This document shows, piece after piece, positions 7,901-62,887 of a DNA stretch of 64,000 nt; within the stretch, counting starts at the first letter, position 1; each line of letters starts with the position of its first letter. The DNA is from TPA_inf: Saccharomyces (lineage: Eukaryota): positions 512,001-576,000 of the forward strand of contig BK006941.2 in the NCBI GenBank assembly GCA_000146045.2, read 5' to 3'. The position numbers and the translations under genes were made by a program. Under the pieces are notes generated by a model. That model was given only the letters and a program-made list of their open reading frames with translations, did not search any database and was not told the origin of the DNA.

Positions 7901-8863
7901 ATGACTTTGCCCCATGCAATTGCAGCCGCGACACAAGTTCCCGAGCCTGAGGGCTACACCCTAATCACAATAGGGTTCAAAAAAGCTTTGAACTACGAAT
8001 TTGTTGTATCAGAACCAAAATCATCGGCTCAAATCTTCGGATACTTGCCTGAAGCTCTGAACACACCTTTTAAGAACGTATTCACAAACATTACGGTACT
8101 ACAAATAGTGCCATTACAGGATGACTCACTCAACTACTTAGTAAGTGTTGCTGAAGTATACTTTCCAACTGCAGAAATAGAGGAGCTGTCAAATCTAATT
8201 ACCAACTCTTCAAGCGCTTTTTACACGGATGGAATGGGTACAGCAAAATCTATGGCTGCAATGGTTGATTCCTCAATACCGCTAACGGGCCTCTTACACG
8301 ATAGTAACAGCAACTCTGGCGGATCTTCGGACGGATCCTCCTCCAGTAATTCGAACTCAGGATCTTCAGGTTCAGGATCTAATTCGAACTCCGGTGTGTC
8401 TTCATCTTCCGGAAATTCCTATCAAGATGCCGGTACTTTGGAATATTCATCCAAATCTAACTCCAACGTATCCACTTCTAGCAAATCAAAGAAAAAAATC
8501 ATTGGTTTAGTTATCGGCGTTGTTGTTGGTGGATGCTTATATATTTTATTCATGATTTTTGCTTTCAAGTATATCATAAGAAGGCGGATTCAAAGTCAAG
8601 AAATTATCAAGAACCCAGAAATTTCCAGTATCAGTTCAAGTGAATTTGGTGGAGAGAAAAATTACAATAATGAAAAGAGAATGAGCGTTCAAGAATCCAT
8701 AACACAATCTATGCGAATTCAAAATTGGATGGATGATAGTTACTATGGTCACGGGTTGACAAATAATGACTCAACTCCAACCAGGCACAATACATCGAGT
8801 TCCATACCAAAAATTTCAAGACCAATTGCTAGCCAAAACTCCCTGGGTTGGAACGAAGTTTGA
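4943..8863 (+). CDS. MSB2: Signalling mucin Msb2 (HOG/filamentous-growth osmosensor), 1306 aa
   Basis: 1306-aa ORF with a signal peptide, a very long Ser/Thr-rich mucin domain containing tandem repeats, a C-terminal TM helix (IIGLVIGVVVGGCLYILFMIFAF) and a short cytoplasmic tail. Confidence 0.9.
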   Translation: MQFPFACLLSTLVISGSLARASPFDFIFGNGTQQAQSQSESQGQVSFTNEASQDSSTTSLVTAYSQGVHSHQSATIVSATISSLPSTWYDASSTSQTSVSYASQESDYAVNQNSWSASTNQLPSTSTTSYYAPTFSTSADFAASSVNAASDVSTASVPIDTSANSIPFTTTSNIETTTSAPLTSDTPLISTSTMSAADNVFSSANPISASLTTTDSSESFDQTSTAGAIPVQSSADFSSSSEILVQSSADFSSPSSPTTTDISLSAAPLQTSESSSFTTASAALPVSSTDVDGSSASPVVSMSAAGQIASSSSTDNPTMSETFSLTSTEVDGSDVSSTVSALLSAPFLQTSTSNSFSIVSPSVSFVPSQSSSDVASSSTANVVSSSFSDIPPQTSTSGSVVSVAQSASALAFQSSTEVYGASASSTMSSLLSTTSLQSTTLDSSSLASSSASSSDLTDYGVSSTASIPLLSASEQASTSSSFSVVSPSVSFVPSQSSSDVASTSAPSVVSSSFSYTSLQAGGSSMTNPSSSTIVYSSSTGSSEESAASTASATLSGSSSTYMAGNLQSQPPSTSSLLSESQATSTSAVLASSSVSTTSPYTTAGGASTEASSLISSTSAETSQVSYSQSTTALQTSSFASSSTTEGSETSSQGFSTSSVLVQMPSSISSEFSPSQTTTQMNSASSSSQYTISSTGILSQVSDTSVSYTTSSSSVSQVSDTPVSYTTSSSSVSQVSDTPVSYTTSSSSVSQVSDTPVSYTTSSSSVSQVSDTPVSYTTSSSSVSQVSDTSVPSTSSRSSVSQVSDTPVPSTSSRSSVSQTSSSLQPTTTSSQRFTISTHGALSESSSVSQQASEITSSINATASEYHSIQTTAATQSTTLSFTDANSSSASAPLEVATSTPTPSSKASSLLLTPSTSSLSQVATNTNVQTSLTTESTTVLEPSTTNSSSTFSLVTSSDNNWWIPTELITQAPEAASTASSTVGGTQTMTLPHAIAAATQVPEPEGYTLITIGFKKALNYEFVVSEPKSSAQIFGYLPEALNTPFKNVFTNITVLQIVPLQDDSLNYLVSVAEVYFPTAEIEELSNLITNSSSAFYTDGMGTAKSMAAMVDSSIPLTGLLHDSNSNSGGSSDGSSSSNSNSGSSGSGSNSNSGVSSSSGNSYQDAGTLEYSSKSNSNVSTSSKSKKKIIGLVIGVVVGGCLYILFMIFAFKYIIRRRIQSQEIIKNPEISSISSSEFGGEKNYNNEKRMSVQESITQSMRIQNWMDDSYYGHGLTNNDSTPTRHNTSSSIPKISRPIASQNSLGWNEV
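7036..7395 (+). repeat. Tandem 51-bp repeat, about 7 copies, inside the MSB2 coding sequence. It encodes the 17-aa unit SSSSVSQVSDTPVSYTT.
   Basis: The unit tcaagttcgtctgtttctcaagtttcagacacaccagtttcttatacaact repeats head-to-tail with a few substitutions. It also produces an antisense repeat-derived ORF at 7011-7277. Confidence 0.9.
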
Positions 8864-22458: not shown

Positions 22459-23218
22459 GATTTATTAAATGTTCTATGATAAAGTAAAAAGTAAAAACAT
22501 ACTTGTTAGTAAAAAACCGAACTCTAGTAGAATTTGGGATAAAGACTATTTGCTAATGACTTGAATTGTAGATTGAATTTAACTGTAAATCACCACTAAG
22601 TACGTAGTTTCCTTCTCTCAAAGTACCATGGGTAGCTAGATCTGTGCTATGGAGCATATAACAGAGACATGGATATTCATCCCATTAAGGTAGAACAGGC
22701 TTTTATGACATATTAAATCCTGGATTGGCCAGTCACTATTTCATCTTATCCGCCTAATATTGGTTTCAAATTTATAGATACATACACTAAAACTAACAGG
22801 GCTTGACGGTTTTCGATAACAAAGAATACGATTTCAATATTCAACTGAGCAATCTTAATAGTATTAAATGCTTCGTGAACTTTAAGAGATACTTCGTGAA
22901 GTTGTTCTGTCGCACAATTCTTCCTGTAGAAGGCGTCCTTCGTTTTTTTGTCTTCGCGCGTTACAGGGTAAATGAACCTCTTTATGGGTGAATGGGTTAC
23001 ACAAATGCACGGATGCATATATAAAATATAGAATTTTGCTTTATATTATTTTGAGCGGGCTAGAATCCACTCAGTGTACAAAGTACTATTCATTATATTG
23101 AACTGAAGAGGCAAGAACTATTTAGCTCAATCAACCACCTTAATAAAGTATTTGGAGTGATATATCGGCTTGTTTTAGTTTAATTCTTGTGGATATTTAG
23201 ATATCAAGGTTGTTGGAA

Positions 23219-23514
23219 TAAAAATCCACTATCGTCTATCAACTAATAGTTATATTATCAATATATTATCATATACGGTGTTAAGATGATGACATAAGTT
23301 ATGAGAAGCTGTCATCGAAGTTAGAGGAAGCTGAAGTGCAAGGATTGATAATGTAATAGGATAATGAAACATATAAAACGGAATGAGGAATAATCGTAAT
23401 ATTAGTATGTAGAAATATAGATTCCATTTTGAGGATTCCTATATCCTTGAGGAGAACTTCTAGTATATTCTGTATACCTAATATTATAGCCTTTATCAAC
23501 AATGGAATCCCAAC
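23219..23514 (+). repeat. Ty1-type delta LTR, 3'-truncated (solo delta)
   Basis: Starts TGTTGGAATAAAAATCCACTATCG and is nearly identical to the LTRs of the adjacent Ty1 for about 295 bp. It diverges after ...atctcaacattc. Confidence 0.85.
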
Positions 23515-23759
23515 AATTATCTCAACATTCCCCCATTTTTCAAAGGTAATTTTTGGAATTCCTTGCAAAGCTGTAATTAGGTATACAAAATACACTAGAT
23601 ACTCTACTCGACGATATAGTAATCCTCATAAGGGAATCGGTATTTCTAATATTACGTTATTTTTATTTTCTTTTACTGTTTTCTATGTTGTAGTTCATAA
23701 TTCCATAACATTATTAATCCTAGTGCTTCAGCTTCCATTGAATCTGATGACTTTTTCTC
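23515..23759 (-). repeat. Divergent delta-like LTR fragment in the opposite orientation, 5'-truncated by the Ty1 insertion
   Basis: Its reverse complement aligns with internal and 3' delta sequence (gagaa..gtcatc..ggaagctgaagc..aggatt.ataatgt....gtatacctaat) at roughly 75-80% identity. Confidence 0.6.
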
Positions 23760-24056
23760 TGTTGGAATAAAAATCCACTATCGTCTATCAACTAATAGTT
23801 ATATTATCAATATATTATCATATACGGTGTTAAGATGATGACATAAGTTATGAGAAGCTGTCATCGAAGTTAGAGGAAGCTGAAACGCAAGGATTGATAA
23901 TGTAATAGGATCAATGAATATAAACATATAAAACGGAATGAGGAATAATCGTAATATTAGTATGTAGAAATATAGATTCCATTTTGAGGATTCCTATATC
24001 CTCGAGGAGAACTTCTAGTATATTCTGTATACCTAATATTATAGCCTTTATCAACA

Positions 24057-25379
24057 ATGGAATCCCAACAATTATCTCAACATTCACATATTTCTCATGG
24101 TAGCGCCTGTGCTTCGGTTACTTCTAAGGAAGTCCACACAAATCAAGATCCGTTAGACGTTTCAGCTTCCAAAACAGAAGAATGTGAGAAGGCTTCCACT
24201 AAGGCTAACTCTCAACAGACAACAACACCTGCTTCATCAGCTGTTCCAGAGAACCCCCATCATGCCTCTCCTCAAACTGCTCAGTCACATTCACCACAGA
24301 ATGGGCCGTACCCACAGCAGTGCATGATGACCCAAAACCAAGCCAATCCATCTGGTTGGTCATTTTACGGACACCCATCTATGATTCCGTATACACCTTA
24401 TCAAATGTCGCCTATGTACTTTCCACCTGGGCCACAATCACAGTTTCCGCAGTATCCATCATCAGTTGGAACGCCTCTGAGCACTCCATCACCTGAGTCA
24501 GGTAATACATTTACTGATTCATCCTCAGCGGACTCTGATATGACATCCACTAAAAAATATGTCAGACCACCACCAATGTTAACCTCACCTAATGACTTTC
24601 CAAATTGGGTTAAAACATACATCAAATTTTTACAAAACTCGAATCTCGGTGGTATTATTCCGACAGTAAACGGAAAACCCGTACGTCAGATCACTGATGA
24701 TGAACTCACCTTCTTGTATAACACTTTTCAAATATTTGCTCCCTCTCAATTCCTACCTACCTGGGTCAAAGACATCCTATCCGTTGATTATACGGATATC
24801 ATGAAAATTCTTTCCAAAAGTATTGAAAAAATGCAATCTGATACCCAAGAGGCAAACGACATTGTGACCCTGGCAAATTTGCAATATAATGGCAGTACAC
24901 CTGCAGATGCATTTGAAACAAAAGTCACAAACATTATCGACAGACTGAACAATAATGGCATTCATATCAATAACAAGGTCGCATGCCAATTAATTATGAG
25001 AGGTCTATCTGGCGAATATAAATTTTTACGCTACACACGTCATCGACATCTAAATATGACAGTCGCTGAACTGTTCTTAGATATCCATGCTATTTATGAA
25101 GAACAACAGGGATCGAGAAACAGCAAACCTAATTACAGGAGAAATCTGAGTGATGAGAAGAATGATTCTCGCAGCTATACGAATACAACCAAACCCAAAG
25201 TTATAGCTCGGAATCCTCAAAAAACAAATAATTCGAAATCGAAAACAGCCAGGGCTCACAATGTATCCACATCTAATAACTCTCCCAGCACGGACAACGA
25301 TTCCATCAGTAAATCAACTACTGAACCGATTCAATTGAACAATAAGCACGACCTTCACCTTAGGCCAGGAACTTACTGA
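24057..25379 (+). CDS. TYA: Ty1 TYA (Gag), 440 aa
   Basis: 440-aa [29 protein letters not shown]... starting inside the 5' LTR. Confidence 0.95.
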
Positions 25380-28300
25380 ATCTACGGTAAATCACACTAA
25401 TCATTCTGATGATGAACTCCCTGGACACCTCCTTCTCGATTCAGGAGCATCACGAACCCTTATAAGATCTGCTCATCACATACACTCAGCATCATCTAAT
25501 CCTGACATAAACGTAGTTGATGCTCAAAAAAGAAATATACCAATTAACGCTATTGGTGACCTACAATTTCACTTCCAGGACAACACCAAAACATCAATAA
25601 AGGTATTGCACACTCCTAACATAGCCTATGACTTACTCAGTTTGAATGAATTGGCTGCAGTAGATATCACAGCATGCTTTACCAAAAACGTCTTAGAACG
25701 ATCTGACGGCACTGTACTTGCACCTATCGTACAATATGGAGACTTTTACTGGGTATCTAAAAGGTACTTGCTTCCATCAAATATCTCCGTACCCACCATC
25801 AATAATGTCCATACAAGTGAAAGTACACGCAAATATCCTTATCCTTTCATTCATCGAATGCTTGCGCATGCCAATGCACAGACAATTCGATACTCACTTA
25901 AAAATAACACCATCACGTATTTTAACGAATCAGATGTCGACTGGTCTAGTGCTATTGACTATCAATGTCCTGATTGTTTAATCGGCAAAAGCACCAAACA
26001 CAGACATATCAAAGGTTCACGACTAAAATACCAAAATTCATACGAACCCTTTCAATACCTACATACTGACATATTTGGTCCAGTTCACAACCTACCAAAA
26101 AGTGCACCATCCTATTTCATCTCATTTACTGATGAGACAACAAAATTCCGTTGGGTTTATCCATTGCACGACCGTCGCGAGGACTCTATCCTCGATGTAT
26201 TTACCACGATACTAGCTTTCATTAAAAACCAATTTCAGGCCAGTGTCTTGGTTATACAAATGGACCGTGGTTCTGAGTATACTAACAGAACTCTCCATAA
26301 ATTCCTTGAAAAAAATGGTATAACTCCATGCTATACAACCACAGCGGATTCCCGAGCACATGGAGTCGCTGAACGGCTAAACCGTACCTTATTAGATGAC
26401 TGCCGTACTCAACTGCAATGTAGTGGTTTACCGAACCATTTATGGTTCTCTGCAATCGAATTTTCTACTATTGTGAGAAATTCACTAGCTTCACCTAAAA
26501 GCAAAAAATCTGCAAGACAACATGCTGGCTTGGCAGGACTTGATATCAGTACTTTGTTACCTTTCGGTCAACCTGTTATCGTCAATGATCACAACCCTAA
26601 CTCCAAAATACATCCTCGTGGCATCCCAGGCTACGCTCTACATCCGTCTCGAAACTCTTATGGATATATCATCTATCTTCCATCCTTAAAGAAGACAGTA
26701 GATACAACTAACTATGTTATTCTTCAGGGCAAGGAATCCAGATTAGATCAATTCAATTACGACGCACTCACTTTCGATGAAGACTTAAACCGTTTAACTG
26801 CTTCATATCATTCGTTCATTGCGTCAAATGAGATCCAAGAATCCAATGATCTTAACATAGAATCTGACCATGACTTCCAATCCGACATTGAACTACATCC
26901 TGAGCAACCGAGAAATGTCCTTTCAAAAGCTGTGAGTCCAACCGATTCCACACCTCCGTCAACTCATACTGAAGATTCGAAACGTGTTTCTAAAACCAAT
27001 ATTCGCGCACCCAGAGAAGTTGACCCCAACATATCTGAATCTAATATTCTTCCATCAAAGAAGAGATCTAGCACCCCCCAAATTTCCAATATCGAGAGTA
27101 CCGGTTCGGGTGGTATGCATAAATTAAATGTTCCTTTACTTGCTCCCATGTCCCAATCTAACACACATGAGTCGTCGCACGCCAGTAAATCTAAAGATTT
27201 CAGACACTCAGACTCGTACAGTGAAAATGAGACTAATCATACAAACGTACCAATATCCAGTACGGGTGGTACCAACAACAAAACTGTTCCGCAGATAAGT
27301 GACCAAGAGACTGAGAAAAGGATTATACACCGTTCACCTTCAATCGATGCTTCTCCACCGGAAAATAATTCATCGCACAATATTGTTCCTATCAAAACGC
27401 CAACTACTGTTTCTGAACAGAATACCGAGGAATCTATCATCGCTGATCTCCCACTCCCTGATCTACCTCCAGAATCTCCTACCGAATTCCCTGACCCATT
27501 TAAAGAACTCCCACCGATCAATTCTCGTCAAACTAATTCCAGTTTGGGTGGTATTGGTGACTCTAATGCCTATACTACTATCAACAGTAAGAAAAGATCA
27601 TTAGAAGATAATGAAACTGAAATTAAGGTATCACGAGACACATGGAATACTAAGAATATGCGTAGTTTAGAACCTCCGAGATCGAAGAAACGAATTCACC
27701 TGATTGCAGCTGTAAAAGCAGTAAAATCAATCAAACCAATACGGACAACCTTACGATACGATGAGGCAATCACCTATAATAAAGATATTAAAGAAAAAGA
27801 AAAATATATCGAGGCATACCACAAAGAAGTCAATCAACTGTTGAAGATGAAAACTTGGGACACTGACGAATATTATGACAGAAAAGAAATAGACCCTAAA
27901 AGAGTAATAAACTCAATGTTTATCTTCAACAAGAAACGTGACGGTACTCATAAAGCTAGATTTGTTGCAAGAGGTGATATTCAGCATCCTGACACTTACG
28001 ACTCAGGCATGCAATCCAATACCGTACATCACTATGCATTAATGACATCCCTGTCACTTGCATTAGACAATAACTACTATATTACACAATTAGACATATC
28101 TTCGGCATATTTGTATGCAGACATCAAAGAAGAATTATACATAAGACCTCCACCACATTTAGGAATGAATGATAAGTTGATACGTTTGAAGAAATCACTT
28201 TATGGATTGAAACAAAGTGGAGCGAACTGGTACGAAACTATCAAATCATACCTGATACAACAATGTGGTATGGAAGAAGTTCGTGGATGGTCATGCGTAT

Positions 28301-29325
28301 TTAAAAACAGTCAAGTGACAATTTGTTTATTCGTAGATGATATGGTATTGTTTAGCAAAAATCTAAATTCAAACAAAAGAATTATAGACAAGCTTAAGAT
28401 GCAATACGACACCAAGATTATAAATCTAGGCGAAAGTGATGAGGAAATTCAATATGACATTCTTGGCTTGGAAATCAAATACCAAAGAGGTAAATACATG
28501 AAATTGGGTATGGAAAACTCATTAACTGAAAAAATACCCAAACTAAACGTACCTTTGAACCCAAAAGGAAGGAAACTTAGCGCTCCAGGTCAACCAGGTC
28601 TATATATAGACCAGCAAGAACTAGAGCTAGAAGAAGATGATTACAAAATGAAGGTACATGAAATGCAAAAGCTGATAGGTCTAGCATCATATGTTGGATA
28701 TAAATTTAGATTTGACCTATTATACTACATCAACACACTTGCACAACATATACTATTTCCGTCCAAGCAAGTGTTAGATATGACATATGAATTGATACAG
28801 TTCATATGGAATACGAGAGATAAGCAATTAATATGGCACAAAAGCAAACCTGTTAAGCCAACAAATAAATTAGTTGTTATAAGCGATGCCTCGTATGGCA
28901 ACCAACCGTATTATAAATCACAAATTGGCAACATATATTTACTTAATGGAAAGGTAATTGGAGGAAAGTCCACCAAGGCTTCATTAACATGTACTTCAAC
29001 TACGGAAGCAGAAATACACGCGATAAGTGAATCTGTCCCATTATTAAATAATCTAAGTTACCTGATACAAGAACTTGACAAGAAACCAATTACCAAAGGA
29101 TTACTAACCGACAGTAAATCTACAATCAGTATAATTATATCCAATAATGAAGAGAAATTTAGGAACAGATTTTTTGGTACTAAAGCAATGAGATTGAGAG
29201 ATGAAGTATCAGGAAATCATCTGCACGTATGCTATATCGAAACCAAAAAGAATATTGCAGACGTAATGACCAAACCTCTTCCGATAAAAACATTCAAACT
29301 ATTAACAAACAAATGGATTCATTAG
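25359..29325 (+). CDS. TYB: Ty1 TYB (protease-integrase-RT-RNase H), expressed as a Gag-Pol fusion by +1 ribosomal frameshift at CTT AGG C (25359-25365)
   Basis: +1 frame ORF 25606-29325 with protease DSGAS, the integrase HHCC/DDE core, RT YxDD (FVDDM) and RNase H motifs. The frameshift heptamer is in the TYA frame, 38 bp before the TYA stop. Confidence 0.95.
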
Positions 29326-29849
29326 ATCTATTACATTATGGGTGGTATGTTGGAATAAAAATCCACTATCGTCTATCAACTAATAGTTATATTATCAATA
29401 TATTATCATATACGGTGTTAAGATGATGACATAAGTTATGAGAAGCTGTCATCGAAGTTAGAGGAAGCTGAAACGCAAGGATTGATAATGTAATAGGATC
29501 AATGAATATAAACATATAAAACGGAATGAGGAATAATCGTAATATTAGTATGTAGAAATATAGATTCCATTTTGAGGATTCCTATATCCTCGAGGAGAAC
29601 TTCTAGTATATTCTGTATACCTAATATTATAGCCTTTATCAACAATGGAATCCCAACAATTATCTCAACATTCACATATTTCTCATTCTCAATCTTCATG
29701 GTATCTTTTTTACACCGTATATGATAAAATACAAGTAATATAAATACCAGCCACTGGATGACATTGAAATTTTATTCTAATAAATGCATCAGCTCTTTAA
29801 AAACATTGCTATTTAGCTATTTGAAGCCAGAAATTTTCACAGATTACCA

Positions 29850-49350: not shown

Positions 49351-49661
49351 ACATAGTTTATTTCAATCTTGTATCTAGATGTTTTTGCTATATTTATATT
49401 TTCTGGGCCAAATCACTAACGCTTTGAAATTTCAAAAGCCAACAACGGATTTCGGACTTCATTTATGTAAATGAAAAAGAATGTGAACAAAAATTGAAAA
49501 AATTCCATATTAATGCACCTTCTAAACCTATTTGTTGAAATTGTATTTAATTCATATAATCATATTCTATTCAAAAAGAATAACAGATAGTATTAGCACT
49601 ATTTCACGTACTGCTTCTAATACTATTATCACAAAATAGACATCGGAAAACTCAAAAATAA

Positions 49662-49743
49662 CGACAACTGCAGGACTCGAACCTGCGCGGGCAAAGCCCA
49701 AAAGATTTCTAATCTTTCGCCTTAACCACTCGGCCAAGTTGCC
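49662..49743 (-). tRNA. tS(AGA): tRNA-Ser (anticodon AGA), 82 nt with long variable arm
   Basis: The reverse complement, ggcaacttggccgagtggttaaggcgaaagattagaaatcttttgggctttgcccgcgcaggttcgagtcctgcagttgtcg, matches yeast tRNA-Ser(AGA). Confidence 0.95.
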
Positions 49744-50198
49744 AATGTATACATTGCTGTTTCCTGGTTTGAAGAAGCTAATCGTGCACGTAAACAACAA
49801 TCTATACTACAAGTAAAAAAATGGGGAAAAAGATGCTGAAGGTGAGATATATGTGGGTAATTAGATAATTGTTGGGATTCCATTGTTGATAAAGGCTATA
49901 ATATTAGGTATACAGAATATACTAGAAGTTCTCCTCGAGGATTTAGGAATCCATAAAAGGGAATCTGCAATTCTACACAATTCTATAAATATTATTATCA
50001 TCGTTTTATATGTTAATATTCATTGATCCTATTACATTATCAATCCTTGCGTTTCAGCTTCCACTAATTTAGATGACTATTTCTCATCATTTGCGTCATC
50101 TTCTAACACCGTATATGATAATATACTAGTAATGTAAATACTAGTTAGTAGATGATAGTTGATTTCTATTCCAACATACCACCCATAATGTAATAGAT

Positions 50199-53100
50199 CT
50201 AATGAATCCATTTGTTAGTTAATAGTTTAAATGTTTTTATCGGAAGAGGTTTTGTCATCACATCAGCAATGTTCTTCTTGGTCTCGATGTAGTATACGTA
50301 TAGATTATTACCTGATACTTCATCTCTAAGTCTCATTGCCTTTGTGCCAAAAAATCTGTTTCTAAATTTCTCTTCATTTGTAGACTTAATTATACTGATC
50401 GTTGATCTACTATCAGTAAGTAAGCCTTTAATAATTGGTTTCTTGTTAAGTTCTTGCACAAGGTGACTGAGGTTATTCAATAGCGGAATAGCTTCACTGA
50501 CTGCGTGTATTTCTGCTTCTGTAGTTGAAGTGCATGTTAACGAAGCCTTTGTCGACTTTCCTCCAATCACTTTTCCGTTGAGTAGGAAAATGTTACCAAT
50601 TTGTGACTTGTAATATGGTTGGTTACCATATGAAGCATCGCTTATTGCGACTAGTTTATTATCTGGCTCGGTAGGTTTGTTTTTGTGCCATATCAGTTGT
50701 TTATCTCTAGTGTCCCACATGAATTGTATTAACTCATATGTCATGTCTAAAACTTGCCTAGAGGGGAATAGTATATGTTGAGCAAGTGTGTTGATGTAGT
50801 ATAGTAAGTCAAATCTAAATTTATATCCAACATATGAAGCTAGACCAATCAACTTTTGCATTTCATGTACCTTCTCTTTGTATTCATCTTCATCTATTTC
50901 TAGTTCATCCTGGTCTATATAAAGACCTGGTTGACCTGGAGCGCTAAGTTTTCTTCCTTTTGGATTCAAAGGTACGTTTAATTTGGGTATTTTCTCAGTT
51001 AATGAGTTTTCCATACCTAATTTCATGTATTTACCTCTTTGATATTTGATTTCTAAGCCAAGTATGTCGTACTGAATTTCGTTATCACTTTCACCCAGAT
51101 TTATTATCTTTGTATCGTATTGTTTCTTGAGTGTTGTTATGATTTTCTTATTTGCATTTAAGTCTTTGCTGAACAATATCATATCATCAACGAATAAGCA
51201 AATTGTTACTTGACTATTCTTAAATACGCATGACCATCCACGAACTTCTTCCATACCACACTGTTTTATCAGGTATGATTTGATAGTTTCGTACCAGTTC
51301 GCTCCACTTTGTTTCAATCCATAAAGTGATTTCTTCAAACGTATCAACTTATCATTCATTCCTAAATGTGGTGGAGGTCTTATGTATAATTCTTCTTTGA
51401 TGTCTGCATACAAATATGCCGAAGATATGTCTAATTGTGTAATATAGTAGTTATTGTCTAATGCAAGTGACAGGGATGTCATTAATGCATAGTGATGTAC
51501 GGTATTGGATTGCATGCCTGAGTCGTAAGTGTCAGGATGCTGAATATCACCTCTTGCAACAAATCTAGCTTTATGAGTACCGTCACGTTTCCTGTTGAAG
51601 ATAAACATTGAATTTATTACTCTTTTAGGGTCTATTTCTTTTCTGTCATAATATTTGTCAGTGTCCCAAGTATTCATTTTCAATAGTTGGTTGACTTCTT
51701 TGTGGTATGCTTCGATATATTTTTCCTTTTCTTTAATATCTTTATTATAGGTGATTGCCTCATCGTATCTTAAGGTTGTCCGTATTGGTTTGATTGATTT
51801 TACTGCTTTTACAGCTGCAATCAGGTGAATTCGTTTCTTCGATCTCGGAGGTTCTAAACTACGCATATTCTTAGTATTCCATGTGTCTCGTGATACCTTA
51901 ATTTCAGTTTCATTATCTTCTAATGATCTTTTCTTACTGTTGATAGTAGTATAGGCATTAGAGTCACCAATACCACCCAAACTGGAATTAGTTTGATGAG
52001 AATTTATCGGTGGGAGTTCTTTAAATGGGTCAGGGAATTCGGTAGGAGATTCTGGAGGTAGATCAGGGAGTGGGAGATCAGCGATGATAGATTCCTCGGT
52101 ATTCTGTTCAGAAACAGTAGTTGGCGTTTTGATAGGAACAATATTGTGCGATGAATTATTTTCCGGTGGAGAAGCATCGATTGAAGGTGAACGGTGTATA
52201 ATCCTTTTCTCAGTCTCTTGGTCACTTATCTGCGGAACAGTTTTGTTGTTGGTACCACCCGTACTGGATATTGGTACGTTTGTATGATTAGTCTCATTTT
52301 CACTGTACGAGTCTGAGTGTCTGAAATCTTTAGATTTACTGGCGTGCGACGACTCATGTGTGTTAGATTGGGACATGGGAGCAAGTAAAGGAACATTTAA
52401 TTTATGCATACCACCCGAACCGGTACTCTCGATATTGGAAATTTGGGGGGTGCTAGATCTCTTCTTTGATGGAAGAATATTAGATTCAGATATGTTGGGG
52501 TCAACTTCTCTGGGTGCGCGAATATTGGTTTTAGAAACACGTTTCGAATCTTCAGTATGAGTTGACGGAGGTGTGGAATCGGTTGGACTCACAGCTTTTG
52601 AAAGGACATTTCTCGGTTGCTCAGGATGTAGTTCAATGTCGGATTGGAAGTCATGGTCAGATTCTATGTTAAGATCATTGGATTCTTGGATCTCATTTGA
52701 CGCAATGAACGAATGATATGAAGCAGTTAAACGGTTTAAGTCTTCATCGAAAGTGAGTGCGTCGTAATTGAATTGATCTAATCTGGATTCCTTGCCCTGA
52801 AGAATAACATAGTTAGTTGTATCTACTGTCTTCTTTAAGGATGGAAGATAGATGATATATCCATAAGAGTTTCGAGACGGATGTAGAGCGTAGCCTGGGA
52901 TGCCACGAGGATGTATTTTGGAGTTAGGGTTGTGATCATTGACGATAACAGGTTGACCGAAAGGTAACAAAGTACTGATATCAAGTCCTGCCAAGCCAGC
53001 ATGTTGTCTTGCAGATTTTTTGCTTTTAGGTGAAGCTAGTGAATTTCTCACAATAGTAGAAAATTCGATTGCAGAGAACCATAAATGGTTCGGTAAACCA

Positions 53101-54165
53101 CTACATTGCAGTTGAGTACGGCAGTCATCTAATAAGGTACGGTTTAGCCGTTCAGCGACTCCATGTGCTCGGGAATCCGCTGTGGTTGTATAGCATGGAG
53201 TTATACCATTTTTTTCAAGGAATTTATGGAGAGTTCTGTTAGTATACTCAGAACCACGGTCCATTTGTATAACCAAGACACTGGCCTGAAACTGGTTTTT
53301 AATAAAAGCTAGTATCGTAGTAAAAACATCGAGGATAGAGTCCTCGCGACGGTCGTGTAATGGATAAACCCAACGGAATTTTGTTGTCTCATCAGTAAAT
53401 GAGATGAAATAGGATGGTGCACTATTTGGTAGGTTGTGAACTGGACCAAATATGTCAGTATGTAGGTATTGAAAGGGTTCGTATGAATTTTGGTATTTTA
53501 GTCGTGAACCTTTGATATGTCTGTGTTTGGTGCTTTTGCCGATTAAACAATCAGGACATTGATAGTCAATAGCACTAGACCAGTCGACATCTGATTCGTT
53601 AAAATACGTGATGGTGTTATTTTTAAGTGAGTATCGAATTGTCTGTGCATTGGCATGCGCAAGCATTCGATGAATGAAAGGATAAGGATATTTGCGTGTA
53701 CTTTCACTTGTATGGACATTATTGATGGTGGGTACGGAGATATTTGATGGAAGCAAGTACTTTTTAGATACCCAGTAAAAGTCTCCATATTTTACGATAG
53801 GTGCAAGTACAGTGCCGTCAGATCGTTCTAAGACGTTTTTGGTAAAGCATGCTGTGATATCTACTGCAGCCAATTCATTCAAACTGAGTAAGTCATAGGC
53901 TATGTTAGGAGTGTGCAATACCTTTATTGATGTTTTGGTGTTGTCCTGGAAGTGAAATTGTAGGTCACCAATAGCGTTAATTGGTATATTTCTTTTTTGA
54001 GCATCAACTACGTTTATGCCAGGATTAGATGATGCTGAGTGTATGTGGTGAGCAGATCTTATAAGGGTTCGTGATGCTCCTGAATCGAGAAGGAGGTGTC
54101 CAGGGAGTTCATCATCAGAATGATTAGTGTGATTTACCGTAGATTCAGTAAGTTCCTGGCCTAAG
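50199..54165 (-). CDS. TYB: Ty1 TYB (Pol), expressed by +1 frameshift as a Gag-Pol fusion
   Basis: 1239-aa +1-frame ORF with protease, integrase and RT/RNase H motifs. Confidence 0.95.
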
Positions 54166-55467
54166 ATGAAGGTCGTGCTTATTGTTCAATTGAATCGGTT
54201 CAGTAGTTGATTTACTGATGGAATCGTTGTCCGTGCTGGGAGAGTTATTAGATGTGGATACATTGTGAGCCCTGGCTGTTTTCGATTTCGAATTATTTGT
54301 TTTTTGAGGATTCCGAGCTATAACTTTGGGTTTGGTTGTATTCGTATAGCTGCGAGAATCATTCTTCTCATCACTCGGATTTCTCCTGTAATTAGGTTTG
54401 CTGTTTCTCGATCCCTGTTGTTCTTCATAAATAGCATGGATATCTAAGAACAGTTCAGCGACTGTCATATTTAGATGTCGATGACGTGTGTAGCGTAAAA
54501 ATTTATATTCGCCAGATAGACCTCTCATAATTAATTGGCATGCGACCTTGTTATTGATATGAATGCCATTATTGTTCAGTCTGTCGATAATGTTTGTGAC
54601 TTTTGTTTCAAATGCATCTGCAGGTGTACTGCCATTATATTGCAAATTTGCCAGGGTCACAATGTCGTTTGCCTCTTGGGTATCAGATTGCATTTTTTCA
54701 ATACTTTTGGAAAGAATTTTCATGATATCCGTATAATCAACGGATAGGATGTCTTTGACCCAGGTAGGTAGGAATTGAGAGGGAGCAAATATTTGAAAAG
54801 TGTTATACAAGAAGGTGAGTTCATCATCAGTGATCTGACGTACGGGTTTTCCGTTTACTGTCGGAATAATACCACCGAGATTCGAGTTTTGTAAAAATTT
54901 GATGTATGTTTTAACCCAATTTGGAAAGTCATTAGGTGAGGTTAACATTGGTGGTGGTCTGACATATTTTTTAGTGGATGTCATATCAGAGTCCGCTGAG
55001 GATGAATCAGTAAATGTATTACCTGACTCAGGTGATGGAGTGCTCAGAGGCGTTCCAACTGATGATGGATACTGCGGAAACTGTGATTGTGGCCCAGGTG
55101 GAAAGTACATAGGCGACATTTGATAAGGTGTATACGGAATCATAGATGGGTGTCCGTAAAATGACCAACCAGATGGATTGGCTTGGTTTTGGGTCATCAT
55201 GCACTGCTGTGGGTACGGCCCATTCTGTGGAGGTGGTACTGAAGCAGGTTGAGGAGAGGCATGATGGGGGTTCTCTGGAACAGCTGATGAAGCAGGTGTT
55301 GTTGTCTGTTGAGAGTTAGCCTTAGTGGAAGCCTTATCATATTCTTGAATTTTGGAAGCTGAAACGTCTAACGGATCTTGATTTGTGTGGACTTCCTTAG
55401 AAGTAACCGAAGCACAGGCGCTACCATGAGATATATGTGAATGTTGAGATAATTGTTGGGATTCCAT
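54145..55467 (-). CDS. TYA: Ty1 TYA (Gag), 440 aa
   Basis: 440-aa ORF with the canonical ...[19 protein letters not shown]... Gag sequence. Confidence 0.95.
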
Positions 55468-57094
55468 TGTTGATAAAGGCTATAATATTAGGTATACAGA
55501 ATATACTAGAAGTTCTCCTCGAGGATTTAGGAATCCATAAAAGGGAATCTGCAATTCTACACAATTCTATAAATATTATTATCATCGTTTTATATGTTAA
55601 TATTCATTGATCCTATTACATTATCAATCCTTGCGTTTCAGCTTCCACTAATTTAGATGACTATTTCTCATCATTTGCGTCATCTTCTAACACCGTATAT
55701 GATAATATACTAGTAATGTAAATACTAGTTAGTAGATGATAGTTGATTTCTATTCCAACAGAAGGAGATAAAAATTTCAAAATGTTTCTATGATAAATTT
55801 ATAATGAATTTATAATAATGTTTTGGGCTGTTTCCCTTTAGATTATTTAGCTTATCGTACATAATCGCACATAATCAGACTCTTTATTATATATAATTAA
55901 ATATTTCGAGATTTACATACTAGTGGTTACTTAAAAGTGTAATCGCAAATTATATCAGAAATGAACAAAGATACGCAGTCCAAATTATTGACAACAACCA
56001 GCATATGTACTTAGTAATATTTTATGAAGTTACTAAATCAAGATTAGAAACGTAAAAATAGAATAACATGATCAAGTTCAAGTCTGAATTTCCTTTAATA
56101 TTTGGATAAGTAAATTCACTACGTGACATGATTGGTTGGTGCCAACATAACACAATTTTAACATTATGTAATCTACAGGATAAGTAGCATTCTGTGTAAC
56201 AAATTGTAGTAAGTCTGGCAAATCTCTACTCTCTTAAAGGTATAAGGATTGTCCAGATACCCGATATTACTAGAGGCCGTCATGTATAAAATGTGGTAAC
56301 GTAAAATATACACTTAACAGAAAGTTAAAAAAGGTTAAGTTATACGTGGCTTTCTCCTTTTTTCTTTTCAAGTACCTACCTGCTGTTAATTAATAGTTAA
56401 TATTGATCACGAGAATAACAGATCTTCATATACAGTATAAGAGAGATCTATAAAACTAAAAATGGATAGATTTTGATGAAATTCGTGGGCCGATATACTC
56501 TTCAGTTTGTCATTCATGATTTATTATAATATAGACTTCATAAGTGAACTTTGTAGTTTCTGGTGATTACTATAGCGATACTTTTCGAATAGTCACAACA
56601 AGAGCTTCTGCTTCACGTTTTTTGGAAACAAAAGACTGAGGAGGGGCTAAATATAAATACTGATTCATATTACGAAAGGAAATAAAAAAATAACTATATG
56701 TAGATTTATATTAATATTGTATAATTGCAGTCCTTGTATTTGAAGAGAATGTGGATTTTGATGTAATTGTTGGGATTCCATTGTGATTAAGGCTATAATA
56801 TTAGGTATGTAGATATACTAGAAGTTCTCCTCGAGGATTTAGGAATCCATAAAAGGGAATCTGCAATTCTACACAATTCTATAAATATTATTATCATCAT
56901 TTTATATGTTAATATTCATTGATCCTATTACATTATCAATCCTTGCGTTTCAGCTTCCACTAATTTAGATGACTATTTCTCATCATTTGCGTCATCTTCT
57001 AACACCGTATATGATAATATACTAGTAACGTAAATACTAGTTAGTAGATGATAGTTGATTTTTATTCCAACATACCACCCATAATGTAATAGAT

Positions 57095-60000
57095 CTAATG
57101 AATCCATTTGTTAGTTAATAGTTTAAATGTTTTTATCGGAAGAGGTTTTGTCATCACATCAGCAATGTTCTTCTTGGTCTCGATGTAGTATACGTATAAA
57201 TTATTACCTGATACTTCATCTCTAAGTCTCATTGCCTTTGTGCCAAAAAATCTGTTTCTAAATTTCTCTTCATTTGTAGACTTAATTATACTGATCGTTG
57301 ATCTACTATCAGTAAGTAAGCCTTTAATAATTGGTTTCTTGTTAAGTTCTTGCACAAGGTGACTGAGGTTATTCAATAGCGGAATAGCTTCACTGACTGC
57401 GTGTATTTCTGCTTCTGTAGTTGAAGTGCATGTTAACGAAGCCTTTGTCGACTTTCCTCCAATCACTTTTCCGTTGAGTAGGAAAATGTTACCAATTTGT
57501 GACTTGTAATATGGTTGGTTACCATATGAAGCATCGCTTATTGCGACTAGTTTATTATCTGGCTTGGTAGGTTTGTTTTTGTGCCATATTAATTGTTTAT
57601 CTCTAGTGTCCCACATGAATTGTATTAACTCATATGTCATGTCTAAAACTTGCCTAGAGGGGAATAGTATATGTTGAGCAAGTGTGTTGATGTAGTATAG
57701 TAAGTCAAATCTAAATTTATATCCAACATATGAAGCTAGACCAATCAACTTTTGCATTTCATGTACTTTCTCTTTGTATTCATCTTCATCTATTTCTAGT
57801 TCATCCTGGTCTATATAATGACCTGGTTGACCTGGAGCTCTAAGTTTCTTTCCTTTTGGGTTCAAAGGTACGTTTAGTTTGGGTAATTTTTCTGTCAAGG
57901 ATTTTTCCATACCTAATTTCATGTACTTGCTTCTTTGATATTTGATCTCTAATCCAAGTATGTCGTACTGAATTTCGTTATCACTTTCACCCAGATTTAT
58001 TATCTTTGTATCGTATTGTTTCTTGAGTGTTGTTATGATTTTCTTATTTGCATTTAAGTCTTTGCTGAATAATATCATATCATCAACGAATAAGCAAATT
58101 GTTACTTGACTATTCTTAAATACGCATGACCATCCGCGAACTTCTTGCATGTCGCAACAATTTATTAAATATGATTTAATGGTTTCATACCAGTTTGCAC
58201 CACTTTGTTTCAAACCATAGAGTGATTTTCTCAAACGTAGTAATTTATCATTCAAACCTAAATGTGGTGGAGGTCTTATGTATAATTCTTCTTTGATATC
58301 AGCATATAAGTAAGCAGAGGATATGTCCAGCTGTGTGATATAATAGTCGTTGTCTAATGCGATTGACAGTGACGTCATCAGTGCATAGTGATGTACGGTA
58401 TTGGATTGCATATCAGAATCATATGTATCGGGGTGTTGAATGTCGCCTCTTGCAACAAATCTAGCTTTGTGTGTACCATCACGTTTCTTGTTAAATATAA
58501 ACATTGAGTTTATTACTTTTTTAGGATCTATGTCATTTCTATCATAATATTTGTTTGTATCCCAAGTGTTCATTTTCAATAGTTGGCTAATTTCTTTATG
58601 ATAAGCTTCAACATATCTGTCTTTTTCTTTGTTGTCTTTATTATATGTAATTGCTTCATCATATCTTAAGGTCGTTCGAACTGGTTTGATCGATTTCACT
58701 CCTTTTATTGCTGCAATTAAATTTATGCGTTTCTTCGATCTTGGTGGTTCCAGACTTCTCATATTCTTATTATTCCATGTGTCTCGGGATACCTCAATTT
58801 CAGTTTCATTATCTTCTAATGATCTTTTCTTACTTTTGGTAGTAGTCAGAACATTAGAATCATCCATACCACCCAAACTGGAATTAGTCTGACGAGAGTG
58901 TATGTGTGGAATATCTTTTGAAACATCAGAAGTGTCCGTAGGAGATTTATGGGTTAAGTCAGGAAGTGGGAGGTCGTCAAGAATAGAATCAGCCGTAACA
59001 TTTTTTGAGGATTTGTCAGGCATTATATTAGGAGTCGCATGGTCAGAAGATCGATATTCTGGCGGATCCGTATCAATGGAGGGTGTATTATCACATACAG
59101 CCTTTGTTTCTATGGAGATGATGGGAGTAGTGGATTCACTGTTGGACGAACGGTCATCTATTGAGGGCGTACTATTTGTAGTCCTGTATTTGATATTTGT
59201 ATCACTATTTCGTTGAATATATGGTTCCTCCGTACCACCCAAACGTGTAGTTTTGATGTTTTCAAGTCCATAATTAACTCTATCCTGTGAGGTCAAATCA
59301 ATCATCTCATTGGTACTACCAGGTCGGTTTTGGTTTCGTGCAGTGAAGGTAGACGAGTGTCTAGGTGAAGTAGTATCTGATTCAACGGTACCACCCATTT
59401 CGGTACTCTCTTTATTAATGATATGGGGTGTACGAGATCGTATAGTAGATGGAAGAATATTGTATTCAGATATGTCGGCATCAACTTCTTTTGGTGCACG
59501 TACTTTTTGGACTGGTTCCTTGTCTAATTGTAAAGGGTTTATTGATTGGGACGAGAAGTCGTTCACTAGAGGATCAGAGTTTATTTCAATCTCCGATTGA
59601 TAGTCATGATCAGATTCTGTATTTTGATCATATGACTGCTCTGTTTCATTTTGTTCAATAAAAGATTGGTTATGGGCTGTTAAACGATTGAGATCATCAT
59701 CAAAAGTGAGTGTATCGTAGTCGAACTGGTCCAATTTCGTTTGCTTGTTTTGTAATATAACGTAATTGGTAGTATCTACTGTCTTTTTTAATGATGGAAG
59801 ATAGATAATATAGCCATAAGAGTTTCGTGACGGATGTAAGGCGTAACCTGGAATGCCACGAGGATGTATTTTCGAGTCGGGATTATGGTTGTTAACTATA
59901 ACCGGTTGACCGAAAGGTAGTATAGTAGTAATGTCCAGTCCAGCTAAACCTGCATGTTGTCTTGCAGATTTATCGTTTTTTTGGTGAGACTAATGAATTT

Positions 60001-61136
60001 CTGATTATAGTAGAAAATTCGACTGCTGAGAACCATAGATGATTTGGTAGACCACTGCAATGAAGCAGTGTGCGACAATCGTTTAATAAAGTACGATTTA
60101 ATCGTTCAGCGACACCGTGTGCTCTAGAATCTGCCGTGGTTGTATAGCATGCAGTAATACCTCTGTTCGTAAAGAACTTATGAAGAGTTTTGTTAGTGTA
60201 CTCGGAGCCACGATCCATCTGGATAACTAGAACGCGAGCATTGAATTGGTTCTTAATAAATGCTAATATCGATGTAAAAACATTGAGGATAGATTCTTCA
60301 CGACGGTCGTGTAATGGGTACACCCATTGGAATCTGGTTTTCTCATCTGTAAACGATATAAAGTAAGAAGGTGCACTTTTCGGTAAGTGATGTACAGGAC
60401 CAAATATATCGGTGTGCAAGTACTGAAAAGGCTCATATGATTCTTGGTACTTTAGTCGTGATCCTTTGACATGTCTATGTTTCGTGCTTTTGCCGATTAG
60501 ACAGTCAGGACATTGATATGTGCTAGCGTTAGACCATTCAATATCCGATTCCTTCAAATATGTAACTGCATTCTTCTTAAGAGACTTCTGAATACTTCGG
60601 AAGTTAGCATGTCCAAGCATTCGATGTATTAACGGATATGGATATTTATTTACGCTTTTGCTTTTGTTGACGTTGTTTATTGTTAGCTTTGAAATGTGCG
60701 AAGGAATTAGGTATTTTTTAGATAACCAGTAAAAGTCTCCATGTTTGACTATGGGAGCTAGTACTGTACCATCCGATCTTTCTAAAGTGTTTCTGGTAAA
60801 GCAGGCAGTAATATTTTGATTAGCCAGCTCACTCAAACTTAATAGATCATAGGCTATGTTTGGTGTGTGTAGTGCTTTTATTGATGTTTTGGTGCCGTTC
60901 TGAAAGTTGAAGTGAAGATTACCAATGGCATTTATAGGAATGTCTTGTTTTTGAGCATCGACTATGTTTATTTCAGAATTGGGTGTTGCATGGTGTAAAT
61001 AATGGGCTGATCTGACAAGCGTTTGCGAAGCTCCTGAATCAATAAGAAGGTGATCAGGTAGTTCGTCATTCGAGTCTATTGTGTGTGTTGGCTTAGATTC
61101 TTTCTGTTGCTGGCCTAAGACTAAGTTCGTCGTCAT
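57095..61136 (-). pseudogene. TYB: Ty2 TYB (Pol) split into two ORFs (59970-61136 and 57095-59734) by a frameshift in a T7/A7 homopolymer at 59976-59982
   Basis: The upstream piece ends ...SLVSPKKR-stop. The -1 frame continues [25 protein letters not shown]... straight into the downstream ORF, so restoring 2 nt (or removing 1) in the A-run would give one continuous Pol. Confidence 0.8.
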
Positions 61137-62409
61137 CGCTTAAGTATTGTGATGAAACGGTTGATTCATTAATGTGATCATTGTTCACCCTTGAGAATTT
61201 ACTAGATGTAGCAATATTGTGAGCTTTTGCTGCTCTTGGTTTTGAACTATTTGTTCTATGATAATTACGAGTTGTAACCTTTGTGTTAGTCGTGTTTGGA
61301 GATGTGCGAGAAACATTTTTGTATTCGCTGTGTTGTTTGTATTGGGACGGTTTATTTAGATTCATGATTTTATTTTCGTCATATATTAATTGAATTTCAG
61401 CGAATAATTGGGAAAGTTTCATGTTCGTTTTGGTACGATATTGATTACGTAGGTATTTGAAGTCACCGGATAGACCTTTAAGTATTAGTTGACAGGCCAA
61501 TCTGTCGCTAACATTGATATTGTTTTCTTTTAGCCTCTGAATGATCGTACTGACTGTAATTTCAAATGTATCAGCAGATGTACTTCCGTCGTACTCAAGG
61601 TTGGCAAGAGCTATCCAATCCTTTAATTCTTGATTGTTAGTTTGCATTTTGGACACACTTTTACAAAGGACTGTAAGGATGTCAGCATAATTAATTTCTA
61701 AAATTTGTTTTACCCATGTTGGCAATAAATGAAATGGGGCAAATGCTTGGAAGGTATTGTATATATACGCATGTTCTTCATAAGTCATTTGTCTTTTGAT
61801 TTCACCCTGGTCATTTGGAATGATGTCACCGAGATTAGAGTTCTTCAAAAATCTGATGTAAAATTTAACCCATGTAGAAAAGTTTTCTTCTGATGTTAAA
61901 GTGTGTGGTGGTAAGACGTTATTTCCCACCTTTGTCTTAGCTTGAGGTATTTCAGAGTGTTGATTTTTTAAATCGATTGGATCAGGTGAGGAAGTACTCA
62001 GTGGTGGGATATACTGTGGCAACGGATAGTGTGGGTCCGGTTGATAATACGCAGGTGACGTTTGATAATGTGAACACGTCATCATAGATGGTTGTTGGTA
62101 ATGTGCCCAGTTAGAGGCCATAGCTTTGTTTGGGGTCATCATGCCGTGCTGTTGGTACTGTCCATTCTGTGGAGGTGGTACTGAAGCAGGTTGAGGAGAG
62201 ACATGATGATGGTTCTCTGGAACAGCTGATGTCCCAGGTGTTGTCTCTTGTTGAGAATTAACCTTAGTGGAATCTCTATCAAATTCCGGTAAATTGGAAG
62301 CTGAAACGGCTAACGGATCTTGATTTTATGGGACTTCCTTAGAAGTAACCGAAGCATAGGCGCTACCATGAAGAGAATGTGGATTTTGATGTAATTGTTG
62401 GGATTCCAT
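61093..62409 (-). pseudogene. TYA: Ty2 TYA (Gag) with a premature stop at codon 27 (TAA at 62326-62328, minus strand). The remaining ORF 61093-62142 restarts at an internal Met.
   Basis: From the ATG at 62407-62409 the frame reads [27 protein letters not shown]-stop-NQDPLAV..., whereas Ty2 Gag continues here (other copies have a sense codon). Confidence 0.8.
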
Positions 62410-62887
62410 TTTTTATAAGGCGATAATATTAGGTATGTAGATATACTAGAAGTTCTCCTCGAGGATTTAGGAATCCATAAAAGGGAATCTGCAATTCTAC
62501 ACAATTCTATAAATATTATTATCATCATTTTATATGTTAATATTCATTGATCCTATTACATTATCAATCCTTGCGTTTCAGCTTCCACTAATTTAGATGA
62601 CTATTTTTCATCATTTGCGTCATCTTCTAACACCGTATATGATAATATACTAGTAACGTAAATACTAGTTAGTAGATGATAGTTGATTTTTATTCCAACA
62701 GTATTTATGTTTTGTCATTCTTTTCTACATAATCTTGAAACTAGGTAGATCTACAATTGAAAAGTAAATACTAACATTATTTACTAAATTTAAGTTAGAA
62801 ATCGGCACGAAAAAAATTTGACAGATTACGAGAGTCCAGCCAAAATATGAGTATATTACTATTTCCCCTTGGTGAAAGAAATGAAAG

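Follow-up and report, generated by a model that had tools for sequence, protein, structure and literature searches.

The yeast reference genome contains 13 catalogued Ty2 elements, one of which, YGRCTy2-1, was placed by Carr et al. 2012 (PMC3511429), whose supplementary file 2 follows Kim et al. 1998, on the minus strand of chromosome VII at 568745-574704, with a length of 5960 bp and the label 'Full, Active'; its insertion is polymorphic, being found in 3 of 25 scorable strains (PMC3511429). Two described systems are closest to this element: the intact Ty2 copies of strain S288C, such as Ty2-C and that encoding the Gag protein of Ty2-OR2 (Q12293), and the engineered mini-Ty1 elements which, when helper proteins are supplied in trans, need only 380 nucleotides of the 5' end and 357 nucleotides of the 3' end of their RNA (PMC4974528). 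Here, a 64-kb stretch of S. cerevisiae S288C chromosome VII (approximately 512-576 kb; hereafter the window, whose numbering is used for all positions unless stated otherwise) was analyzed, in which direct reading and a script both place a Ty2 element of 5960 bp at 56741-62700, on the minus strand. This element is the already known YGRCTy2-1, and it is highly probable that it represents a structurally complete Ty2, inserted near a tRNA-Ser(AGA) gene, that subsequently suffered two independent point lesions and became non-autonomous.

The first lesion lies in TYA (Gag), whose frame (61093-62409; Pfam TYA, E=6.9e-198) spans 438 codons, from an ATG at 62407-62409 to the normal stop at 61093. After 27 residues this frame meets a TAA at 62326-62328, as an earlier first-pass annotation of this DNA had described, although its heading assigned the stop to codon 27 and it is in fact codon 28; past it, the frame remains open for 410 more codons. 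The second lesion is a run of seven adenines (A7, or T7 on the plus strand) at 59976-59982, where intact Ty2 has six (A6), and consists of a one-base insertion near Gag-Pol residue 810, between the integrase catalytic core and the integrase C-terminal domain. An in-frame TAA at 59970-59972, created by the frameshift directly after the run, ends the upstream part of TYB; the break had been correctly located at the T7 run, but past it the reading moves from element frame 1 to frame 2, so that the downstream frame is +1 with respect to upstream TYB and not, as given previously, -1. Repair of the sequence in silico, by reverting TAA to TCA, removing one A and applying the +1 shift at the CTTAGGC heptamer, yields an uninterrupted Gag-Pol of 1770 residues, and no other stop or frameshift was found in the coding sequence of the element; these are thus its only two disabling lesions. 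An autonomous Ty2 requires uninterrupted TYA and TYB frames, and the window copy has neither. Gag or Gag-Pol cannot be made from the normal start of YGRCTy2-1, and even with readthrough of the stop, Pol would be left without the integrase C-terminal domain, reverse transcriptase and RNase H; either lesion by itself abolishes autonomy. The central claim of the first-pass annotation, namely that a nonsense codon in Gag and a frameshift at a homopolymer in integrase have inactivated a Ty2 copy, is borne out by the frame map, by the 1770-residue repair and by the 99.0% identity of the repaired product to Ty2-C.

The ancestral state at both sites was read from five intact Ty2 DNA copies of metagenomic origin, carried by unrelated assemblies (L003, L004, L005, L008 and L009). 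These stood in for S288C Ty2 DNA, since exact-product look-ups for two reference Ty2 proteins gave no hits. All five display TCA (Ser28) and A6 wherever the sites are covered, and all retrieved Ty2 proteins read KEVPSNQDP at the first site and SLVSPKNDKS at the second, where A6 corresponds to SPKNDKS. This alignment to other Ty2 copies, a step that had been recommended previously, identifies the mutated base as 62327 (C>A, nucleotide 134 of the RNA) and the change in the run as A6 to A7; the nine-base run (A9/T9) that had been expected of an intact copy is six bases long in the five DNA copies and in all Ty2 proteins examined. Overall, the earlier observation stands once three small details are corrected (the stop codon number, the direction of the frame change and the length of the intact run), and its interpretation is supported.

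Besides the C>A change and the extra A, which are included in the count, the window copy differs privately from the five Ty2 copies at few positions, for a total of 18 nucleotides. Nine of the 18 fall in a 45-bp patch at 59705-59749, in the region encoding the integrase C-terminal domain, where ILQDKQSKLDQFNYD is altered, and the substitutions of this patch are common only to the allele of strain CEN.PK. Judging from this clustering, the patch looks like a single tract of conversion, recombination or template switching from an unsampled Ty2 variant, which fits the 19 recombination events described among the 13 full-length reference Ty2 copies (PMC3511429). A comparable pattern is seen in the LTRs (long terminal repeats), which are 98.2% identical: five of their six mismatches fall in a 13-bp stretch immediately before the TYA ATG, at 62410-62422 (CGCCTTATAAAAAATGG) in the 5' LTR and 56782-56794 (AGCCTTAATCACAATGG) in the 3' LTR. 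Here the common Ty2 form is that of the 3' LTR, and the 5' LTR resembles a variant found in L004, so that the cluster probably reflects one conversion event and not five point mutations, in which case LTR divergence would overstate the age of the element. The proposal that the copy is 'recently dead' fits the small number of private differences, the similarity of the LTRs and the presence of the insertion in a minority of the strains scored.

Since the first-pass annotation had raised sequencing slippage as an alternative, the question arises of whether errors of sequencing or assembly account for either or both of the lesions, the genomic copy being in reality an intact autonomous Ty2. [quoted passage not shown] The syntenic locus of this record is 99.86% identical to the window, flank included, and harbors a tandem Ty2-LTR-Ty2 arrangement in which both copies carry the codon-28 TAA. 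This record therefore confirms the stop independently and at the same place on the chromosome; a homopolymer artefact is excluded as its source, and the stop can be regarded with near certainty as real.

The length of the A-run is more delicate, homopolymers being a classic site of error. Both copies in CP046087.1 have A6 at this site, which weighs against A7 being genuine. In the same element, however, the CP046087.1 sequence is one A short, in a manner that breaks the frame, at three other A6 runs (59789, 59006 and 58522), each of which is six bases long in the window and in all intact Ty2 copies alike; in addition, the short-read polishing of the CEN.PK113-7D assembly employed only reads whose mapping quality was at least 20 (PMC5812507), a filter that presumably leaves repeats such as Ty largely unpolished. 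Because the A6 call sits among three demonstrable A-run under-calls in repeats that are presumably unpolished for the most part, it is uninformative and not contradictory, and CP046087.1 was rejected as an arbiter of the A-run. Independent support for A7 comes from a SPAdes-style metagenome contig in ENA (L001; ERZ21852950 NODE_7877, with coverage of approximately 10), which carries A7 together with the exact 388-residue truncated product. When aligned to window positions 59232-61230, this contig differs at about 20 sites downstream of the A7 run, where it matches other Ty2 copies; in the 59705-59749 patch it follows the Ty2 consensus, and near 59656 it has a 3-bp AAA insertion. These differences make it probable that the contig is a chimera assembled from short reads of several Ty2 copies; it shows that reads with A7 occur elsewhere, though not that the YGRCTy2-1 locus is their source.

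Database look-ups add little on this point. The exact 879-residue ORF that follows the frameshift was not on record elsewhere in the look-up, which could be held in favor of an error, as could the fact that JGI metagenome contigs and IMG/VR, collections that contain too little yeast DNA to inform, yielded no A7 or TAA variants when scanned; a length-tolerant scan of the same JGI and IMG/VR collections retrieved only two Ty2-bearing contigs, both with A6, and a look-up of the neighboring Ty1 Gag returned only short contigs without synteny. Conversely, the published length of YGRCTy2-1 is equal to that of the window copy, 5960 bp, and a copy with A6 would measure 5959 bp. Between the recurrence of the TAA in the CP046087.1 tandem, the A7 and identical 388-residue product in L001 and this published length, slippage is largely excluded as an explanation: A7 is very likely real, and it is very unlikely that either lesion is an error of sequencing or assembly. 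Furthermore, an erroneous A7 would not rescue the element, which the nonsense codon inactivates by itself.

The tandem arrangement in CP046087.1 deserves description in its own right. The locus (L002, 7443-17050) is syntenic to window positions 56741-62700 and ends inside the second copy. Its middle LTR is recombinant, displaying the 3'-LTR state at LTR nucleotide 94 and the 5'-LTR states at nucleotides 279-291, which is the expected product of an unequal LTR-LTR crossover. A duplication of LEU2/NFS1 on chromosome VII of CEN.PK113-7D has been published as lying between two Ty elements, and might be connected with this tandem.

The first-pass annotation had also assigned the element to Ty2, on the basis of its LTR ends, Gag and integrase C-terminal sequence, and this assignment holds. 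The repaired Gag-Pol differs from that of S288C Ty2-C (YCLWTy2-1, UniProt P25384) at 17 of 1770 residues (99.0% identity), with some of these differences clustered (Gag 147-162; Pol 887-896), and, used as a protein query, the repaired product led to a cluster of 1056 members at 99% identity, whose named members are S288C Ty2 proteins, including the Gag-Pol of Ty2-C (P25384), the Gag of Ty2-OR2 (Q12293) and 'Ty2-DR1'. In sequence, Gag and the C-terminal region of integrase both belong to the Ty2 type. A reading of the element as a Ty1/Ty2 hybrid, or as a variant of Ty1, could draw on the fact that delta LTRs are common to Ty1 and Ty2, on the 95-97% identity of its LTRs to those of Ty1-GR2, which lies approximately 1 kb away, on the region encoding reverse transcriptase and RNase H, which is about 92% identical to the neighboring Ty1, and on the resemblance of the 45-bp patch and a short LTR stretch to conversion tracts. 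Nevertheless, at the DNA level the element is 98-99.3% identical, end to end, to the five Ty2 copies, its identity to Ty2-C extends over all 1770 residues, and that to Ty1-GR2 drops to 77% for Pol and to just 50% for Gag; the 45-bp patch leaves the assignment unchanged. Such a hybrid was rejected on account of the end-to-end Ty2 identity, and the probability that the element is anything other than a true Ty2 is vanishingly small.

Entries labelled as bacterial were also seen clustering with yeast Ty2 Gag/Pol fragments at 90% identity or above, namely NCBI GAA5351190.1, GAA5349144.1 and WP_461254127.1, attributed to Streptococcus uberis, and MTT11453.1, attributed to Parabacteroides merdae. These are almost certainly yeast DNA contaminating bacterial assemblies.

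Apart from its two lesions, the copy is well preserved throughout, as had been noted previously for the LTRs, the primer-binding site and most of the coding sequence. On either side of the element, at 62701-62705 (5' copy) and 56736-56740 (3' copy), lies a 5-bp target-site duplication that reads AATAC on the minus strand and GTATT on the plus, in agreement with the earlier description. Both LTRs measure 332 bp and have TG...CA ends (TGTTGG...TTCA); the 5' LTR, of the delta type (62369-62700), includes an R region that begins with GAGGAGA at 62460 and also contains the TYA ATG, while the 3' LTR occupies 56741-57072. The primer-binding site, TGGTAGCGCC (62359-62368, nucleotides 93-102 of the RNA), adjoins the 5' LTR and is intact, its role as the primer site for the initiator methionine tRNA being taken from PMC4974528, and the polypurine tract, GGGTGGTA (57073-57080), adjoins the 3' LTR. 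GAGGAGA and UCUCCUC, which are pairing partners in Ty1 RNA (PMC4974528), are both present in the element, the former at the 5' side and the latter downstream.

In its coding region, TYB opens at 61139, in the +1 frame relative to TYA, and the overlap between the two is joined at the programmed +1 frameshift heptamer CTTAGGC (61113-61119), which is intact, occurs once and lies in the TYA frame, as is characteristic of the Ty1/Ty2 group. Upstream TYB (59970-61139) encodes the protease, with its DSG motif, and the integrase N-terminal region and catalytic core (Pfam Pol_BBD, gag_pre-integrs and rve), and downstream TYB (57095-59989), in the +1 frame, encodes the SH3-like integrase C-terminal domain, reverse transcriptase and RNase H (Pfam SH3_retrovirus and RVT_2), remaining open for 964 codons, from 59989 up to 57095, where the normal TYB stop lies. 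The Pfam domains are encountered in the order TYA; Pol_BBD, gag_pre-integrs, rve; SH3_retrovirus, RVT_2, corresponding to protease, integrase and reverse transcriptase, and the HHCC and D,D,E motifs of integrase and the FVDD motif of reverse transcriptase are present along with that of the protease. The combination of LTRs with a target-site duplication, a primer-binding site with a polypurine tract, and Gag followed by protease, integrase and reverse transcriptase/RNase H is that of a Ty1/copia-type LTR retrotransposon (Pseudoviridae).

The identity of the locus rests on the agreement of position, strand, length and neighbors with those published for YGRCTy2-1. Besides the element itself, Carr et al. 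placed YGRWTy1-1 at 535764-541689 of chromosome VII (plus strand) and YGRCTy1-2 at 561855-567764 (minus strand) (PMC3511429), and subtraction of 512004 from the published positions reproduces four independently measured window boundaries, 23760, 55760, 56741 and 62700. The window indeed contains two further Ty elements, at 23760-29685 (plus strand) and 49851-55760 (minus strand), together with four tRNA genes and an ORF of 1895 residues. The Gag proteins of its Ty1 elements are exactly those of S288C Ty1-GR1 (Q12085) and Ty1-GR2 (Q12485); the 1895-residue ORF is GSC2, an exact S288C match, as are UGA1, SNU71, IMO32, EAT1 and YGR012W. YGRCTy1-2 lies 980 bp from YGRCTy2-1, with YGRWTy1-1 and GSC2 located upstream. 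Nothing detectable distinguishes the window copy from the catalogued element, and the label 'Full, Active' does not conflict with its lesions. A literature search that did not cover Kim et al. 1998 found no statement of the two lesions. UniProt and SGD list Ty2-GR2 proteins for chromosome VII and are not known to list Ty2-GR1 ORFs, a situation that would fit the broken frames.

The tRNA-Ser(AGA) gene occupies 49661-49744 and, if the intervening 5.9-kb Ty1 is excluded, the element lies approximately 1.1 kb upstream of it, a distance that fits the RNA polymerase III (Pol III)-directed targeting of Ty1 and Ty2 insertion (PMC4974528). A fixed solo LTR fragment of Ty3p, reported at 568168-568287 of chromosome VII (PMC3511429), maps to window positions of approximately 56164-56283, in the interval that separates the Ty1 from the Ty2. 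Solo delta LTR remnants also flank YGRWTy1-1 (23211-23528, 23546-23759 and 29712-29780): a direct copy and an inverted fragment lie immediately upstream of it, and a short inverted piece lies on its downstream side, by tRNA-Glu; these remnants indicate repeated insertions at a Pol III hotspot. Elsewhere in the window, an ORF of 1306 residues (4943-8863) includes seven 51-bp tandem repeats at 6981-7447 and matches MSB2 in size, and an ORF of 551 residues (17264-18919) matches MTL1 in size. The exact translations of these two ORFs were absent from the protein collection, in which eight other window proteins have exact S288C matches; their absence could be due to repeat-length variation or to a filter applied to the collection.

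The history suggested by these features would begin with a Ty2 inserting upstream of tRNA-Ser(AGA) and leaving a 5-bp duplication, after which two independent point lesions would have been acquired. The C>A transversion, in converting Gag Ser28 (TCA) to TAA, blocks synthesis of Gag and Gag-Pol from the normal start; the expansion of A6 to A7 cuts Pol short after the integrase core, so that the integrase C-terminal domain, reverse transcriptase and RNase H are no longer in frame. The promoter-bearing LTR, R-U5, primer-binding site, 5' cis-acting RNA region, polypurine tract and 3' LTR are all intact, save for the substitution at RNA nucleotide 134, downstream of the primer-binding site. We infer that YGRCTy2-1 is a non-autonomous passenger, whose RNA could be packaged, reverse-transcribed and integrated by the proteins of intact Ty2 (or Ty1) copies, or could alternatively recombine with them. 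Because its cis-acting ends are intact, and by analogy with the mini-element and helper precedent of Ty1 (PMC4974528), YGRCTy2-1 may be mobilized in trans; the nonsense base, however, lies inside the 5' cis-acting region, which speaks against this possibility to the extent that trans-mobilization is not guaranteed. In addition, the early stop may lower the translation and stability of the transcript.

A further rival reading is that the copy still yields a working or regulatory protein, be it through readthrough of the stop, re-initiation at Met90 to produce an N-truncated Gag of 349 residues, or slippage at the A7 run, perhaps with a dominant-negative effect like that of Ty1 p22. An in-frame ATG at 62142 does open a 349-codon ORF that runs to the normal TYA stop, this ORF is called as a gene in CP046087.1, and the control of Ty1 copy number employs the N-truncated Gag p22 (PMC4599808 and PMC8458377). 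On the other hand, the sequence comparisons brought no evidence of expression, and for Pol to be restored two rare events would have to coincide on a single RNA; production of a working or regulatory protein is considered extremely unlikely. Only slightly less unlikely, by analogy with p22, is the related idea that YGRCTy2-1 is not inert, in that its transcript or the Met90 Gag of 349 residues would disturb the assembly of Ty2 or Ty1 particles, or that its RNA, once co-packaged, would spread the lesions by recombination; if this were true, the survival of a lesion-bearing tandem in CEN.PK113-7D would be more than chance.

As a point-mutated copy, YGRCTy2-1 is a routine case of a young LTR retrotransposon that has kept its cis-acting ends, with nothing unexpected about it. 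Such copies matter as substrates for ectopic recombination and as possible passengers of trans-complementation. According to a recent preprint, YGRCTy1-2 and YGRCTy2-1 form a pair of neighboring repeats at approximately 573 kb that mediates rearrangements of Chr7R; this Ty1/Ty2 pair is a documented rearrangement hotspot. In comparison with the intact S288C Ty2 copies Ty2-C and Ty2-OR2, the element displays the same architecture, the same CTTAGGC heptamer and the same protease, integrase and reverse transcriptase motifs, but the intact copies combine Ser28 (TCA) with A6 and specify full Gag and Gag-Pol, whereas YGRCTy2-1 has TAA and A7. With the mini-Ty1 donors (Xu and Boeke 1990, via PMC4974528) it shares the absence of functional proteins and the retention of terminal cis-acting sequences, and with these a dependence on proteins provided in trans; those donors, however, are engineered deletions of Ty1 that have been tested experimentally, while YGRCTy2-1 is a natural, full-length Ty2 known here from its sequence, and differs from them in being disabled by point lesions, one of which lies within the 5' cis-acting region itself.

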